A stretch of DNA of 64,000 bases from Clostridia bacterium (GTDB lineage Bacteria > Bacillota > Clostridia > UMGS1840). A program made the position numbers and the translations under genes. This document shows, piece after piece, positions 3,299 to 10,637 of this stretch; the first letter of the stretch is position 1; every line of letters begins with the position of its first letter. The stretch spans positions 114,983 to 178,982 of the forward strand of contig JAZQGY010000029.1 in the NCBI GenBank assembly GCA_045540295.1, in the 5' to 3' direction. The notes beneath the pieces are model-generated. The model saw only the letters and a list, made by a program, of their open reading frames with translations. It did no database searches and was not told the origin of the DNA.

Positions 3299-4513
3299 AT
3301 GAAAGTATTAGTTGAATTTTTTGATTCTTGCCAGCTACATAATGTGATTGCAGCAATCAGCTTGCATCCTGAGAGAGTCATTTTTATTGGAGATTCTGCC
3401 ACAATGGAGACATCCCGTCGGGAGGCATTGCAGAGGTTTTTTCGGTTGCGTAAACAGAAAATCGTGATAGAATACATCACTGTTCAGTCTTGTTCATATC
3501 GAGATATTCATGAAAAGATCAGCAGTGTTTTAAAAAAACATACGGATGTTTGCTTTGATGTTACCGGTGGACGGGATTTATTTCTTCTTGCCTTGGGAGA
3601 ACTGTCGTGTTGTCAAAAAACTCCTATGATTCGCTTTGACGTGCCTTCCGGAAAAATGATACGGATTAAGAATGCTGAGCAAATTCCTGAGCCAACTGTT
3701 GCAAGCCTAACTGTTCGTCAGAGCATCGTGTTAAATGGCGGAGAAGTAATTGACCCGCAAAACTATCTGTCTTCAGAACAACTAACACCGACATTTAGTA
3801 AAGAAGTACGCAGCCTGTTCCAGATCAGTAAGCAGCGGCCGAAACTGTGGAATCAGTTTGTGATTGCGTTGGAGGGACTTATCAATCAGACTGCTGTCGG
3901 CTCAGATCTTAAAGTTTCTGTGAAGGTTTCGTCTGTCCCGGAAATTCAGTATCGAAAATTGACGGAATATGCTTTTTTGGAAAAACTCGCAGATGCGGGA
4001 CTTATACTGGATTACTGTTATGACGGTGAAAGAATTTCTTTCCGATACAAAAATGAACAGGTGCATCGTTGTATGGCAAAATCCGGAAATATTCTGGAAC
4101 TGTATTCCTATCTGCTGATTCATGAAATCAGTAAGGAGAGCACTTCCGTTTTTGGTGACAAAAGAGTCGGAGTTCCTGTGGATTGGGACGGAGTTATTGA
4201 GCCTCGGTATCGGAGTGGAACCAAAAATGAGATTGATTTGATTCTCACTAAAAAAACCGTTCCGGTATTTATATCCTGTAAACATGGGGAAGTTCTGAAG
4301 GAAGCTTTGTATGAATTGCATACGGTTGCAGAGCATTACGGCGGCATGTATGCAAAAAAAGTGTTAATTACAGCAGAACTTAGCAATATTCCAAGCAAAA
4401 GAATCAGTTTTTTAGAGCGTGCCCGTGATATGGGGATTGAGGTTATTTACAATGCAAACCGCATGACAGAAGAAGAATTTAAGCAGAGACTCCGAAAAAT
4501 CGGCACTCCTTAA
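3299..4513 (+). CDS. DUF1887 / Card1-Can2-like protein: N-terminal CARF-like Rossmann domain plus C-terminal PD-(D/E)xK nuclease domain
   Basis: The N-terminus MKVLVEFFDSCQLHNVIAAISLHPERVIFIGDSATME resembles the DUF1887 CARF start (LVS.Q..PN......P..v.li.T..M). The C-terminus carries GNILELYSY..., VDWDG and NEIDLILTKKTVPVFISCKHGE, which fits a restriction-endonuclease-fold (D...ExD...sCK) motif. RBS GGGAG lies upstream of ATG 3299. Confidence 0.55.
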   Translation: MKVLVEFFDSCQLHNVIAAISLHPERVIFIGDSATMETSRREALQRFFRLRKQKIVIEYITVQSCSYRDIHEKISSVLKKHTDVCFDVTGGRDLFLLALGELSCCQKTPMIRFDVPSGKMIRIKNAEQIPEPTVASLTVRQSIVLNGGEVIDPQNYLSSEQLTPTFSKEVRSLFQISKQRPKLWNQFVIALEGLINQTAVGSDLKVSVKVSSVPEIQYRKLTEYAFLEKLADAGLILDYCYDGERISFRYKNEQVHRCMAKSGNILELYSYLLIHEISKESTSVFGDKRVGVPVDWDGVIEPRYRSGTKNEIDLILTKKTVPVFISCKHGEVLKEALYELHTVAEHYGGMYAKKVLITAELSNIPSKRISFLERARDMGIEVIYNANRMTEEEFKQRLRKIGTP

Positions 4514-4643
4514 AAAATCACGAAAAAAACACAGAATATTTTGGTCTTTTCTATTGCGAAAACAGAAAAAATATGGTATACTGAATTGATTATATTTTTT
4601 TAATAACAAATTCCCGGAAAAATAAATGAAAGTAGAGAGTAAT

Positions 4644-7370
4644 ATGTTCAAATCCTTAATTGAAAAAATGATTGGATCCTACTCGGATCGTGAAATTAAG
4701 CGGATTAAGCCGCTTGTGGATAAGGTATTATCCTACGATGAAGCATACGGCAAGTTAACCGATGATGAACTCAAGGCAAAGACCCCTGAGTTTATTTCCC
4801 GTTTGGCAAATGGAGAAACATTGGATGATATTTTGCCGGAAGCATTTGCTACCGTTCGTGAAGCGTCTTGGCGTGTACTGGGATTAAAGCATTATCCTGT
4901 GCAGATTATTGGCGGTATTGTACTTCATCAAGGCCGTATTTCTGAAATGAAAACCGGGGAAGGTAAAACGCTGGTTGCAACCTTACCTGCTTATTTAAAT
5001 GCATTAACCAAGCGTGGTGTGCATATTGTTACCGTTAACGATTATCTTGCAAAGCGTGACAGTGAATGGATGGGCAAGGTATATCAGTTTTTGGGACTGA
5101 CGGTTGGTTTGGTGATTCATGATGTAGAACCGCAGAACCGTCACCAGTCTTATGCTTGCGACATTACCTACGGTACCAATAATGAATTTGGTTTTGACTA
5201 TTTAAGAGATAATATGGTCATTTATAAAGAACAGATGGTGCAAAGAGGACATTATTTTGCCATCGTGGACGAGGTGGATAGCATCCTAATTGACGAGGCA
5301 AGAACACCTCTGATTATCTCCGGTCAGGGAGATAAATCTACCGAGATTTATCAGTTGGCAGATCGTTTTGTAAAAGGGTTGAAACGAAAAGTTGTTGTGG
5401 AAGAAGACACCAAAGTATTGTCTGATGAAGGTGATGCAGACTATATTGTGGATGAAAAATCCAAAACGGCAAACCTAACTGCACAGGGGATTCAGAAGGC
5501 AGAAGAACACTTCCGTATTGAGAATTTATCTGACCCTGAAAATTTGACCTTATCCCATCACATCAACCAGGCATTAAGAGCGAATGGGATTATGAAATTA
5601 GACCGCGATTATGTGGTAAAAGACGGCGAAATTATCATTGTTGATGAATTTACCGGTCGTTTGATGTTTGGCAGACGTTATTCCGAAGGCTTGCATCAGG
5701 CAATTGAAGCCAAAGAAGGCGTGAAGGTGGAAAGAGAATCCAAAACCTTGGCAACCATCACCTTCCAGAACTATTTCCGTTTGTATGAAAAGCTTTCCGG
5801 TATGACCGGTACAGCAAAAACCGAGGAAGAAGAATTCCAGGAAATTTACGGGTTAGACTGTATTGAGATTCCTACCAACAAGCCGTTACTTCGTGAGGAT
5901 GCTCCGGATGCGGTTTATAAAACTGAATTGGGAAAATATAATGCTGTCATTAATGAAATCATTACCCGTCATCAGACCGGTCAGCCGATTCTGGTGGGTA
6001 CTGTTTCTATTGATAAATCTGAGATTTTGTCAGCCTTATTAAAACGTCGTGGCGTAAAGCACGAAGTGTTAAATGCCAAAAACCACGATAAAGAAGCTCA
6101 AATTATTGCGCAGGCAGGTAAGAAAAATGCTGTTACCATTGCAACCAATATGGCTGGTCGTGGTACTGACATTATGTTGGGCGGTAATGCTGAATATTTG
6201 GCAAAAGCAGACTTGGTAAAAGCAGGATATGAAGATCGCGTGATAGCGGAAGCCACCGGTTTTGCTCACACAGAGGATGAAGAAATTTTAAAAGCAAGAC
6301 AGGAATATACCCAGGCTTTAAAGAATTATAGCGAACAGTTAAAACAGGAAAAAGAAGAAGTATTAAAAGCCGGCGGTCTTTGCATCATTGGTACGGAGCG
6401 CCACGAATCCCGCCGTATTGACAATCAGCTCCGTGGCCGTGCAGGTCGTCAAGGTGACCCCGGTTTCACCAAATTCTTCCTGTCTTTGGAAGATGAGCTG
6501 ATGCGTTTGTTCGGTTCTGAACGGGTACGCGGTGTGGTGGAAGCTTTAGGCTTACCGGAAGATGAACCGATTGAACACAATATGCTTACCAAAGCCATCG
6601 AAAGTGCACAAAAACGTGTGGAAGGCAAAAACTTCAGCATCCGTAAACACGTTTTGCAGTTTGATGATGTGATGAATCAGCAGAGAGAAATTATATACGG
6701 AGAACGTCAAAAAGTACTAAACGGTGAGAGTCTCCGAGATAATATTATCAAAATGATTGGAGACAGTGTTTCTGCTACTGTAGATCAGTTCTGCGGCATC
6801 AGTGAATATGCAGATGATTGGAATCTGACCGGTTTGGCAGATCAGGTAAATAAAATCTATACCACCGAAGACAATCCTTTCCGTGTGGATGAAATTGATT
6901 TGGAAGAGGTTACTAAGGAAAGCTTAAAAGCACAAATCAAAGAGCTGGCTATGGCGAAATACGAAGCCAAAGAAACAGAATTTGGTGAACAGATGCGTGA
7001 AATTGAACGGGTTGTATTGCTTCGTGCAGTAGATAGCCATTGGATGGACCACATCGACGATATGGATCAGCTCAAAAACGGTATTAATCTTCGTGCGTAC
7101 GGTCAAAGAGACCCTGTTGTGGAATATAAATACGAAGGATTTGATATGTTTGAAGCAATGATTCAGGGCATTTCTGATCAAACTGCAAAAACGGTGTTGA
7201 ATGTGGCACTCCGTCAGCCTATTGAACGTAAGCAGGTGGCGATTCCCAATGAAACGCCCAGTGACGGCAGTTTGAAAAAAGCTCCTGCACGTGCTCAGAA
7301 TAAAGTGGGCCCAAATGATCCCTGTCCCTGCGGAAGCGGCAAGAAATACAAAAAGTGCTGTAGACCGTAG
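4644..7370 (+). CDS. secA: Preprotein translocase ATPase SecA
   Basis: Full-length SecA hallmarks: [14 protein letters not shown] Walker [30 protein letters not shown], and the C-terminal zinc finger [13 protein letters not shown]. Start taken at ATG 4644 ([12 protein letters not shown]..); ATG 4626 is an alternative. Confidence 0.95.
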
Positions 7371-7412
7371 GAATTGAGCCGGAAACTTTTAACGATAAAG
7401 GATGTGATAAGT

Positions 7413-8532
7413 TTGTTGGAATTTGAAGAATTAAAGCTCCGCTTAACAAACTCCCAAGAACAAATGAACGAATTGAGGGATTCACTTTAATGTTTCTAAA
7501 TTAGAAACAGAAATTACGGAACTTGACCGTCAGTCGGCAGAACCCGGCTTTTGGGAGGATTTAGAAAACTCTCAAAAAGTATTGCAACGGCTGAAGGGCT
7601 TAAAAGATAAGCTCCAAAGCTTTTCCAATCTGGAGACCCTTTATGAGGATATTTTCGTTCTCATTGAATTGGCAGGCGAAGAAGAAGACGCTTCTGATCT
7701 TTTGCAGGAAGCTCTTTCCATGGAAAAAGATTTTGCAAAGAAGCTTGAAACCATGCTTTTGGAAACCTTGTTATCTGAAGAATATGACGGTAATAATGCA
7801 ATCATTTCGCTTCATTCCGGTGCAGGTGGTACTGAAGCTCAGGACTGGGTACAGATGCTTTACAGAATGTATCTTCGTTGGGCGGAAAAAAGAGGTTTTA
7901 AAACTGAAACCTTGGATTATCTGGACGGAGATGAAGCAGGGATTAAAAGCGTTACGGTATTAGTCAGCGGTCTGAATGCTTACGGTTATCTGAAAGCAGA
8001 AAAAGGAGTACATCGACTGGTTCGTATTTCTCCTTTCGATTCCTCCGGCAGACGCCATACTTCTTTTGCATCCTTGGATGTTATGCCGGAATTACCGGAT
8101 GATATTCAGATTGACATCAACCCTGAAGATTTAAAAGTGGACACCTACCGTGCTTCCGGTGCAGGCGGTCAGCATATCAATAAGACGGAATCTGCAATCC
8201 GTATTACTCACATTCCCACGGGCATTGTGGTATCCTGCCAGAACGAACGAAGTCAGCACAAAAACCGTGACACGGCGATGAAAATGCTTTATGCAAAGCT
8301 TCTGGAATTAAAGGAGCAGGCACATAAAGATAAGATTGAGGATTTAAAAGGGGAACAGTTGGATATTGGCTGGGGAAGTCAGATCCGTTCTTATGTGTTC
8401 CATCCCTACAGTATGGTAAAGGATCACAGAACCTTAGAAGAAACCGGGAATGTTACTGCCGTGATGGATGGGGAACTGGATGCGTTCATCAATGCTTATT
8501 TAAAAGAACAGGCGAAAGGAAAAAAAGAATAA
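7413..8532 (+). CDS. prfB: Peptide chain release factor 2, made by a programmed +1 frameshift (7413..7487 joined to 7489..8532)
   Basis: The zero frame reads (M)[24 protein letters not shown] then TAA. The +1 frame continues [32 protein letters not shown].. into ORF 7582..8532. RF2 SPF motif ([15 protein letters not shown]) and GGQ motif are present. TTG start at 7413 lies after AAAGGA. Confidence 0.9.
7475..7491 (+). promoter_or_regulatory. prfB +1 frameshift cassette: SD-like GAGGGA, slippery CTT, in-frame TAA
   Basis: GAGGGA (7475-7480), TTCA, CTT (7485-7487), TAA (7488-7490), T. Same layout as the canonical AGGGGG-nnn-CUU-UGA-C cassette, but the stop is TAA. Confidence 0.8.
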
Positions 8533-8533
8533 G

Positions 8534-9604
8534 ATGTTTGAAAAATTAGGTTTTTTGGAAGAAAAATATATTGAATTAAACAAAAAAGCAGCAGATCCGA
8601 ATGTAATTAGTGATCAGGATCAATTTCGTTCTGTGATGAAAGAAATTTCCGAATTGGAACCTATCGTTGAAAAATATCGGGAATATAAACAGGCCCAGCA
8701 GGAGATGAACGATGCCAAGGAAATGATGGACACCGAATCTGACCATGACCTTCGTGAAATGGCAGAAGCTGAATATTATGACAAGCGTGACCAAAGCGAA
8801 AACATTATTGAGGAAATTAAAATTCTTCTGTTACCCAAGGATGAAAACGACGATAAAAACGTTATTGTTGAAATTCGTGCCGGTGCAGGCGGCGATGAAG
8901 CAGCATTATTTGCCGGAGATTTATACCGTATGTATTCTATGTACGCCATGAATCAGCGGTTTAAAACTGAGGTGATTTCCGAAACTGAAATCGGTATTGG
9001 CGGTTACAAGGAAATTTCCTTCTCGATTGAAGGGAAGGGGGTTTACTCCAAATTAAAATTTGAAAGCGGAGTTCACCGTGTGCAGCGTATTCCGGAAACC
9101 GAATCCGGCGGCAGAATTCATACCTCAACGGTAACCGTTGCTGTGCTACCTGAAGTGGAAGATGTTGAAGTGGAAATCAACCCCGACGATTTAGAGGTGG
9201 ATACCTACCGTTCTTCCGGTGCAGGCGGTCAGCATGTTAATAAAACCGAATCTGCAATTCGTATTACCCATAAGCCTACCGGTATCGTAGTGGCTTGCCA
9301 GAACGAACGAAGCCAACACAAAAACCGTGATATGGCAATGAAAATGCTGCGTTCTAAATTGTATGATATGAAATTGGTTGAGCAGAACAGCAAAATTGCA
9401 GCAGAAAGAAAATCCCAGGTTGGAACAGGGGACAGAAGTGAGCGAATCCGTACTTATAACTATCCCCAGGGACGTGTTACTGACCATAGAATCGGCTTAA
9501 CCATCCAGCAGCTTCCCAATATTATGAACGGCAATATTGATGCTTTTGTGGAAGCATTAATTACGGCAGACAGAAGTGCAAAACTGTTAATGAGTGAAAA
9601 CTAA
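8534..9604 (+). CDS. prfA: Peptide chain release factor 1
   Basis: RF1-type N-terminus [27 protein letters not shown]. PxT-type decoding motif ([14 protein letters not shown]) and GGQ motif. ATG lies 1 nt after the prfB stop. Confidence 0.9.
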
Positions 9605-9609
9605 GCAAT

Positions 9610-9644
9610 AAAAAAGCTGAATGAGAAATCATTCAGCTTTTTTG
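9610..9644. terminator. Bidirectional rho-independent terminator between the convergent genes prfA and mltG
   Basis: AAAAA-AGCTGAATGA-gaaa-TCATTCAGCT-TTTTT. Confidence 0.75.
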
Positions 9645-9647
9645 TTG

Positions 9648-10637
9648 TTATAAACCGTATTGTTGGATTTGTTGATTATGTTCTTCGTAGGTTTTTGAAT
9701 AATGATTGTCCCCGTTTTTGTCGGTGAAGAAATATAAATAATTTGTATCTTTGGGATATAGCACTGCCTCAATGGCTAAAATTCCCGGTGAAGAAATGGG
9801 AGCCGGTGGAAGTCCGTCATTCTGATAGGTATTGTACGGGGAATCAATTTTAGTATCGGCAACCGACAGTACCGGTTTTCTTTCTTTTAAAATATACTGC
9901 ACCGTTGCACAGGATTCCAAACGTTTGCCTGCTTTTAAACGGTTATGGAACACTGAAGCAACCAGCGGAAAATCTTCCGTTTTTCTGGCTTCTCGTTCCA
10001 CGATGGATGACAATGTGATTACTTCATGGACATTCATTCCCAATTCTCTGGCACGTTCTTCGTATTGGTCTGTCCATTTCGATTGAAAATTTGCAGTCAT
10101 CAGTTTAATAATTTCTTCTGAGGAAGCATTATTTTTGATCTGATAGGTATCAGGAAACAGATACCCTTCCATAAGAGTGTCACCGATGATTAAGGCTCCC
10201 TGCTTAGTTTGAAATTTGAAGCTGGACAGAGCTTTTTGAAATTCCTCTTCGCTTGGAATGAGTTCTTGTTCTAAGAGTCTTGCTGTGATTTCTCTCACTT
10301 CAAAGCCTTCCGGAATCGTCAGAGCCACCATGTTGGTTGCAGGATTGCTGATTGCTTTTACAATGTCACCGTAGGCACTGTTTTGTCTGACGGAAATGGT
10401 ACCGGGATAAATGGTGGCATCAGGTGTGGTAAGCTGATAATAAATTTTAAACACATAGCGGCTCAGTACCACACCGTTTTCTTCTAATTTTTGTGATATT
10501 GTGGTCAGATTATCCTGTTCTGAAACAGTAATGGTAACGGTATCTGCAGAGCCAATAATACCAATCATATCACAACCAAATACCAGGATGATAGCAATCA
10601 AAATGCCACAAAGTATTTTCAATATTTTTTTCATCAA
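9648..10637 (-). CDS. mltG: Endolytic murein transglycosylase MltG (YceG family)
   Basis: N-terminal membrane anchor. YceG motifs LSSIVEREA, FHNRLKAG..L.S.ATVQY and SPYNTYQNDGLPPAPISSPG. Confidence 0.88.
   Translation of the reverse strand: MMKKILKILCGILIAIILVFGCDMIGIIGSADTVTITVSEQDNLTTISQKLEENGVVLSRYVFKIYYQLTTPDATIYPGTISVRQNSAYGDIVKAISNPATNMVALTIPEGFEVREITARLLEQELIPSEEEFQKALSSFKFQTKQGALIIGDTLMEGYLFPDTYQIKNNASSEEIIKLMTANFQSKWTDQYEERARELGMNVHEVITLSSIVEREARKTEDFPLVASVFHNRLKAGKRLESCATVQYILKERKPVLSVADTKIDSPYNTYQNDGLPPAPISSPGILAIEAVLYPKDTNYLYFFTDKNGDNHYSKTYEEHNQQIQQYGL

Follow-up and report, generated by a model that had tools for sequence, protein, structure and literature searches.

A UAA-type prfB frameshift cassette followed directly by prfA in a clade of Clostridia, with a possible joint feedback on both release factors

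The release factor RF1 reads the stop codons UAA and UAG, and RF2 reads UAA and UGA. Synthesis of RF2 by +1 frameshifting at a stop codon inside its own gene, prfB, is a textbook case of translational autoregulation, and the near-universal use of UGA at this position is taken as proof that the site senses RF2 specifically. Here we describe a prfB gene from a Clostridia bacterium in which the internal stop is UAA and in which prfA, the gene for RF1, follows the end of prfB almost without a gap. It is located in a stretch of 64,000 nucleotides (GenBank assembly GCA_045540295.1, contig JAZQGY010000029.1, positions 114,983 to 178,982), referred to in the following as the window; coordinates are those of the window unless a relative is named. 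UAA and the prfB-prfA tandem are found together across a deep clade of Clostridia. From the sequence comparisons we tentatively propose that the locus is a secA-prfB-prfA operon with a functional +1 autoregulatory prfB cassette, whose UAA-U sensor might place RF1 and RF2 under a joint feedback.

In the canonical systems of Escherichia coli and Bacillus subtilis, programmed +1 frameshifting takes place at CUU UGA C. The window shares with them a zero-frame open reading frame (ORF0) of 25 codons, a purine-rich Shine-Dalgarno (SD)-like element, the CUU-U sequence, the stop at codon 26 (the same position as in E. coli) and a +1 frame that encodes full RF2, and it has secA upstream as in B. subtilis. 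It differs from them in having UAA instead of UGA, U instead of C as the +4 base, Asn instead of Asp as residue 26, and prfA in the operon. Lalanne et al. point out that the B. subtilis transcripts pair prfB with secA and prfA with prmC, and that autoregulation of RF1 has not been reported. A bona fide RF1 gene is present both in this Firmicute prfA-prmC operon and in the window, and the Sua5/YwlC-type downstream neighbours of prfA are kept in the main clade of relatives described below and in one further relative (L010). In the window, however, prfA is located behind prfB and has no adjacent prmC.

The UAA variant by itself is already known. Prince, Lin & Feaga (2025) surveyed more than 12,000 genomes and found the motif in 8,160 of them, with TGA in 98.6%, TAA in 1.4% and TAG in none. 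According to these authors TAA is randomly scattered, is kept only among strains of a species, is "poorly tolerated" and is not fixed in clades; they call the +4 C "almost universally conserved", and gene order, operons and a link to prfA are not addressed in their paper. A natural CUU-UAA prfB is present in Chlorobium tepidum (Baranov 2002, as cited by Grome et al.), and the internal TGA of E. coli prfB was changed to TAA (D26N) with no significant growth defect, a change made to keep autoregulation (Grome et al.). The prfB of the E. coli 'Ochre' strain (RF2.B1) has the same CUU-UAA cassette as the window and, through D26N, the same Asn, and it is viable. Unlike the window, it is synthetic, has no linked prfA and stands in an RF1-deleted background, so that only RF2 can act on its UAA. 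The published CUU-UAA variants show the same G-to-A change of the sensor and keep the other motif elements; they are described as scattered, whereas the TAA reported here persists across several genera of one clade and comes with prfA downstream. The first-pass annotation of the window had raised the question whether the UAA variant and the tandem were already described: the former is published, whereas full-text literature searches did not turn up any account of prfB and prfA as neighbours. The clade-level retention of TAA, the prfA linkage, the +4 U and the collapse of the spacer between the two genes are apparently undescribed.

The genes of the locus are all on the forward strand. An SD region for prfB (AAAGGATGTGAT, 7397-7408), recognised by reading the sequence and conserved in the alignment with relatives, precedes ORF0 (7413-7490). 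This frame starts with TTG at 7413, a position that matches the GTG and ATG starts of the relatives in the alignment, comprises 25 sense codons ending in LRDSL and is closed by an in-frame TAA (7488-7490). The cassette GAGGGA-TTCA-CTT-TAA-T occupies 7475-7491. Its SD-like GAGGGA (7475-7480), a purine-rich element upstream of CTT, was assigned by sequence, and pairing with the 16S rRNA tail is putative; the slippery CTT (7485-7487), with T as the next base (7488), shows no variation in the alignment. The internal stop is not the RF2-specific UGA, and the +4 base, T at 7491, is not the C that makes a weak stop context. The +1 frame (7489-8532, stop TAA at 8530-8532) begins with NVSKLE and encodes RF2 residues 26-372, residue 26 being Asn through the +1 reading of UAA-U. 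It contains the RF2 motifs SPF (8029-8037) and GGQ (8164-8172) and has Ala at the equivalent of E. coli position 246 (YRASGAGGQ), which is the active type; the joined RF2 reaches 528 bits against the TIGR00020 prfB profile (cutoff 370). Both the end of the zero frame in GAGGGA TTCA CTT TAA T and the full RF2 in the +1 frame had been described in the first-pass annotation and are present as claimed.

Conservation among five genus-level relatives peaks locally at the cassette (0.92-0.94 compared with a mean of 0.81), and its 15-nt context, TGAGGGATTCACTTT, is followed by TGA in more than 90 prfB loci among the metagenome matches listed. Since the upstream element and the slippery site are those of ordinary TGA cassettes of Clostridia and conservation peaks here, the site very likely works as a +1 frameshift signal. 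We infer the frameshifting itself, and its repression by release-factor activity, from a +1 frame that is intact and conserved and has no route of initiation besides the shift. No RNA structure conserved between the window, the close relative L001 and other relatives was found at the cassette, and the fold of the cassette alignment has only five invariant pairs and no covariation. The folding seen around the cassette in the window (z = -3.6) was dropped as a candidate feature, as L001 and other relatives have no such folding. Beginning 1 nt past TAAT, the window contains a perfect 7-bp hairpin, GTTTCTA-AAT-TAGAAAC (7492-7508), which L001 retains through a U-G wobble. As L201, L202 and the remaining relatives lack it, it is probably coincidental. 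A search of 7200-9800 for Rfam families yielded nothing but miRNA/sRNA noise below threshold, located at the terminator hairpin described below.

An error in the sequence has to be considered for such an unusual stop. L001, a metagenome-assembled genome of an uncultured member of the Clostridia, belongs to a different species (84.1% nucleotide identity to the window over 7.5 kb) and has the identical CTTTAAT and the identical TAAgATG junction between the two genes. Three more genus-level relatives (L201-L203) have CTTTAAT and spacers of 2-3 nt, and CTTTAAC was found in about 19 further species-level loci. The concern that the stop at 7488-7490 is a misread TGA is thus refuted by independent assemblies of other species that share the TAA. 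Between L001 and the window, amino acid identity is 98% at a nucleotide identity of 84%, indicating purifying selection on the +1 frame. An artefact or pseudogene, whether through misreading or misassembly at 7488-7491 or through decay of prfB, can practically be dismissed: we found no point in its favour, and against it stand the occurrence of the cassette in assemblies from different species and a +1 frame that is intact, well above the prfB cutoff and under purifying selection.

The second part of the arrangement is the stop-start junction TAA-g-ATG (8530-8536), in which a single G (8533) separates the two genes, a geometry that suits termination-reinitiation. prfA (8534-9604) starts with ATG, contains PET (9092-9100) and GGQ (9224-9232), and its product reaches 535 bits against the RF1 equivalog NF001859 (cutoff 400) and 534 bits against TIGR00019 (cutoff 423), while it stays below the cutoff of the prfB model with 316 bits. 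The assignment as a PxT-type RF1 gene 1 nt behind prfB, made in the first-pass annotation, is therefore confirmed by sequence and profile scores. The two are the only release-factor genes in the 64-kb window, which contains no second RF1-type gene; a prmC candidate was likewise not found in the window, because no open reading frame with an NPPY-type motif is present.

Does prfA belong to the same message as prfB? The first gene of the likely transcription unit is secA (4626-7370), which has all SecA Pfam domains and precedes prfB in almost every related locus of the neighbourhood comparison; the gap from secA to the prfB start is 42 nt and has no terminator-like site inside. Terminator-like sites are absent between secA, prfB and prfA as a whole, and promoter-like matches between the genes are not above shuffles (15 compared with 12.6 +/- 3.2), so that an internal promoter for prfA, raised earlier as an objection, finds no backing beyond chance hits in the sequence. 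A hairpin downstream of prfA (9606-9647; 19-nt arms, 95% complementary, flanked by A/T runs) lies between prfA and a convergent YceG/MltG-like gene identified by domain search (9648-10637, reverse strand) and is likely a bidirectional terminator that ends the operon. Because no terminator and no above-chance promoter intervene and a terminator follows prfA, the earlier claim that prfA is carried on the prfB message holds up, as far as sequence can tell.

The pair thus has the geometry of coupled genes, with both on the same strand, 1 nt apart, with no terminator and only chance-level promoter hits between them. The SD-like element for prfA, GAAAGGA (8514-8520), is located within the 3' coding sequence of prfB, 13 nt before the ATG. 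In relatives with short spacers this distance is 11-13 nt, compared with 7-9 nt in those with longer spacers. The 1-3-nt spacing together with the displaced SD would favour termination-reinitiation, although nothing enforces it, and a dependence of prfA translation on prfB translation is plausible.

To see how widely the arrangement occurs, three samples were drawn: a scan with the RF2 sequence over one genome per GTDB species, which returned 80 loci; a scan of metagenomes for the shared context TGAGGGATTCACTTTRA, less biased with respect to the stop, which gave at least 120 loci; and an RF1-side sampling of eight contexts from the window's own lineage (L201-L208). In the GTDB sample, 15 species (L002-L009, L013, L016, L020, L026, L034, L043 and L046), which make up the main clade, have CTTTAAC and prfA directly downstream of prfB, with spacers of 13-97 nt and an own SD in each case; among them is the cultured Ructibacterium gallinarum (L008, DSM 107454), whose spacer measures 25 nt. 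A further TAAC locus (L024) is too short to show the downstream gene. A downstream RF1 gene is absent in all 39 of the 39 non-tandem TGA loci of this sample. The remaining combinations were also found: TGAC with the tandem (L010), TAAC without it (L037), and a lost cassette with the tandem kept, prfA following after 7 nt (L048). Four loci (L012, L023, L036 and L066, with CTT at 3994 in each) have A or G after TGA (CTTTGAA, CTTTGAG) in place of the canonical +4 C, and therefore Glu at position 26.

All eight RF1-side contexts have secA-prfB-prfA, showing that the window's lineage is well populated. CTTTAAT is present in L201, L202, L203 and L204, whose RF1 identities to the window are 96%, 94%, 92% and 87% and whose spacers are 2, 3, 3 and 57 nt. 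CTTTAAC is present in L205 (86%, about 134 nt), L206 (85%, 16 nt) and L207 (83%, 22 nt), and L208 (86%, 88 nt) has CTTTGAT. Across the more distant relatives, spacers thus measure 13-134 nt. Among the metagenome matches listed, 72 TGA loci lack the tandem and a further 22 are cut by contig ends, five TAA loci lack it (L082, L121, L145, L147 and L168), and one TAA locus, a member of the main clade (L143), has it; in one TGA locus (L141) the contig ends in an RF1-like gene, 593 nt further downstream. L121 and L145 are 98% identical to each other. L082, L147 and L168 (cassettes near 5601, 5216 and 1361) have CTTTAAC and no downstream prfA, and come from GC-richer genomes (51-57%); since their RF2 identity is only 66-79%, TAA may be stably kept in this second, non-tandem clade.

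In both the main clade and L010, prfA is followed by Sua5(-LMWPc), rimI-like and tsaD-like genes. In L008, as a representative of the main clade, the first of these is a fusion of Sua5 with a low molecular weight (LMW) phosphatase (6235-7686, 483 aa; PF01300, PF03481 and PF01451). L010 has Sua5 alone (6162-7160, 332 aa), followed by a separate open reading frame of 140 aa (7187-7609) that is LMW phosphatase-like by appearance.

Pooled over the GTDB and RF1-side samples and the metagenome matches listed, tandem loci with a readable cassette comprise 25 with TAA and two with TGA (TAA in 25/27), those with TAA being the 15 main-clade species, L143, the window, L001 and L201-L207. For non-tandem loci, pooled over the GTDB sample and the metagenome matches listed, the counts are six TAA and 111 TGA (TAA in 6/117). 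These are raw counts from loci that are not independent and are phylogenetically pseudo-replicated. The comparison of prfB 5' regions and prfB-prfA synteny across Clostridia that the first-pass annotation had proposed thus came out in favour of a co-occurrence of TAA and the tandem across a deep clade.

The order in which the parts were assembled can be approached with a neighbour-joining tree of RF2 and RF1, although the deep branches of these trees are short and they can serve as a guide only. In this tree, L010 (TGAC) is basal, the main TAAC clade is sister to the window's lineage, and TAAT arises within the latter; spacers of 1-3 nt are confined to a genus-level group formed by the window, L001 and L201-L203. 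The most parsimonious sequence would be formation of the tandem, the change from TGA to TAA, the change of the +4 base from C to T, and finally the collapse of the spacer to 1-3 nt, with L208 as a single reversion to TGA. The cassette of L208 (at about 1290-1310) is CTTTGAT, while its near relative L205 has CTTTAAC. Since the two share downstream synteny (about 80-84% nucleotide identity) and have different cassettes, stop and +4 base have flipped recently. L048 (about 3881-4987) and L011 (3926-5038) have a cassette-less prfB that is read in frame, with Asn kept at the former shift site (ESLNI in L048, DSINI in L011). Because the +1 codon is AAC (Asn) in a cassette of the TAA type and GAC (Asp) in one of the TGA type, both losses likely started from TAA ancestors.

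How might such a locus work? A class-I release factor binding to UAA would lead to release of a 25-residue peptide; if none binds, tRNA-Leu would slip by +1 and full-length RF2 with Asn at position 26 would be made. Since UAA is decoded by both factors, the frameshift rate would fall with the combined activity of RF1 and RF2 and not with that of RF2 alone. prfA would be translated largely by ribosomes that finish prfB, through termination-reinitiation, because its start lies 1 nt after the stop and its SD-like element is distant. A single recoding site could in this way gate the synthesis of both factors. In relatives with longer spacers, prfA would be affected only via polarity or mRNA stability. 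What the data show is how the locus is built, that other species conserve it, and that TAA and the tandem occur together. Three further elements of the proposal we infer: a material contribution of RF1 at the UAA, translational coupling of prfA, and an arrangement that is adaptive and not just tolerated. It is rather doubtful, if worth considering, that this is the first natural feedback loop on RF1, in which one site senses total class-I activity via UAA, gates RF2 by frameshifting and RF1 by coupling or polarity, and was assembled stepwise.

Several observations weigh against the joint feedback. Prince, Lin & Feaga (2025) argue that TAA cassettes would remain responsive to RF2 and cite evidence for RF2 as the main UAA terminator in most bacteria; if UAA is read mainly by RF2, the RF1 input may be small. 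UAA-U is the strongest bacterial stop signal and +4 C the weakest context (Wei & Xia), so that UAA-U should depress frameshifting and does not obviously answer the need of a sensor. The association between TAA and the tandem is no statistical proof because it is mostly traceable to one ancestral G-to-A change. In addition, TAA is found without the tandem in no fewer than three other lineages (L037; L121/L145; L082/L147/L168), one of which spans the 66-79% RF2 identity mentioned above, and TGA with the tandem is present in L010 and, inside the window's own lineage, in L208. These exceptions in both directions rule out a strict dependency, and neither feature requires the other. At the junction, the prfA start is not sequestered by RNA structure (z = -1.4, not significant); with an SD-like element present and an unoccluded start, independent initiation of prfA is possible. 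The junction is also not an unusual island of conservation among the relatives, and the use of TGA as a stop codon is not unusual in these genomes.

Joint feedback is nevertheless, in our tentative judgement, the best-supported mechanism. It is closely rivalled by a simpler one, which we consider a serious possibility: ordinary RF2 autoregulation with a tolerated, near-neutral stop variant, in which RF2 would perform nearly all termination at the internal UAA, RF1 would add a negligible share, and an operon rearrangement would simply have placed prfA on the same transcript. This would agree with the large published survey, in which TAA cassettes are read as RF2-regulated and RF2 as the main terminator at UAA, with the TAA loci that lack the tandem in several lineages, and with the tolerance of E. 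coli for an internal TAA. It also has a form based on relaxed constraint: if both factors are made from one mRNA at a roughly fixed ratio, sensing through UAA and through UGA would be equivalent and the stop and +4 base would drift, and a toggling between TAAC, TAAT, TGAT and TGAC, as expected under relaxed constraint, is indeed seen in the tandem lineages. The outright loss of the cassette in L048 despite the tandem, and spacers of 13-134 nt with a well-placed own SD for prfA in most relatives, point in the same direction. A merely tolerated variant does not readily account for the fact that TAA makes up 1.4% overall and is not fixed in clades, yet is found in 25/27 tandem loci across an RF2 divergence of about 30-35%. 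Moreover, the trend towards tighter coupling in the window's genus, with 1-3-nt spacers and a displaced SD, is directional and not random. A third explanation is a reset of the set point: UAA, and especially UAA-U, would terminate better than UGA-C and lead to less frameshifting and less RF2, independently of prfA. The ranking of UAAU as the strongest stop and of +4 C as the weakest context speaks for it. Termination at the RF2 frameshift window reportedly extends from about 80% with UAAU to about 7% with UGAC. However, TGA stops 7 of the 48-51 genes of the window, and its share is 24% in the TAA/tandem clade compared with 13% in Clostridia with a TGA cassette; since TGA usage is not lower than in the latter, nothing points to a lesser demand for RF2, and low TGA usage as the reason for TAA is unsupported by the stop-codon counts. 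As it also leaves the co-occurrence with prfA unexplained, we regard this reset as unlikely.

A clade that retains a UAA sensor and has prfA fixed behind prfB would be a natural experiment on the balancing of two partly redundant termination factors, and on the questions why UGA is otherwise so strongly preferred and how recoding signals are re-purposed. The retention of TAA at the clade level qualifies the published statement that TAA is not fixed within clades. With Ructibacterium gallinarum DSM 107454, a tandem member is available in culture, so that the idea is directly testable. Should the RF1 input turn out to be negligible, the loci would still constitute a well-documented clade-level tolerance of a non-canonical cassette.

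The two neighbouring genes are similar to each other in the region for domain 3, which contains GGQ: prfB 8097-8288 and prfA 9157-9348 have 82% DNA identity over 192 nt. With the GGQ domain of the window's RF1, the score is higher for E. coli RF2 (108 bits) than for E. coli RF1 (90 bits); the control, RF1 from L010, is neutral, at about 90-91 bits for either. A recent gene conversion between the GGQ regions was rejected: in a nucleotide tree the paralogues still group by type, and the excess at synonymous sites is marginal (per-genome p about 0.02-0.08, uncorrected), leaving a likeness to RF2 at the amino acid level. For the same two reasons, any conversion from prfB to prfA would be old or restricted to short tracts; an old conversion between the tandem paralogues may have taken place.

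Upstream of secA, the window encodes a protein of 404 aa (3299-4513) with a sub-threshold match to a Card1-like endonuclease domain (22.9 bits, cutoff 26.4).

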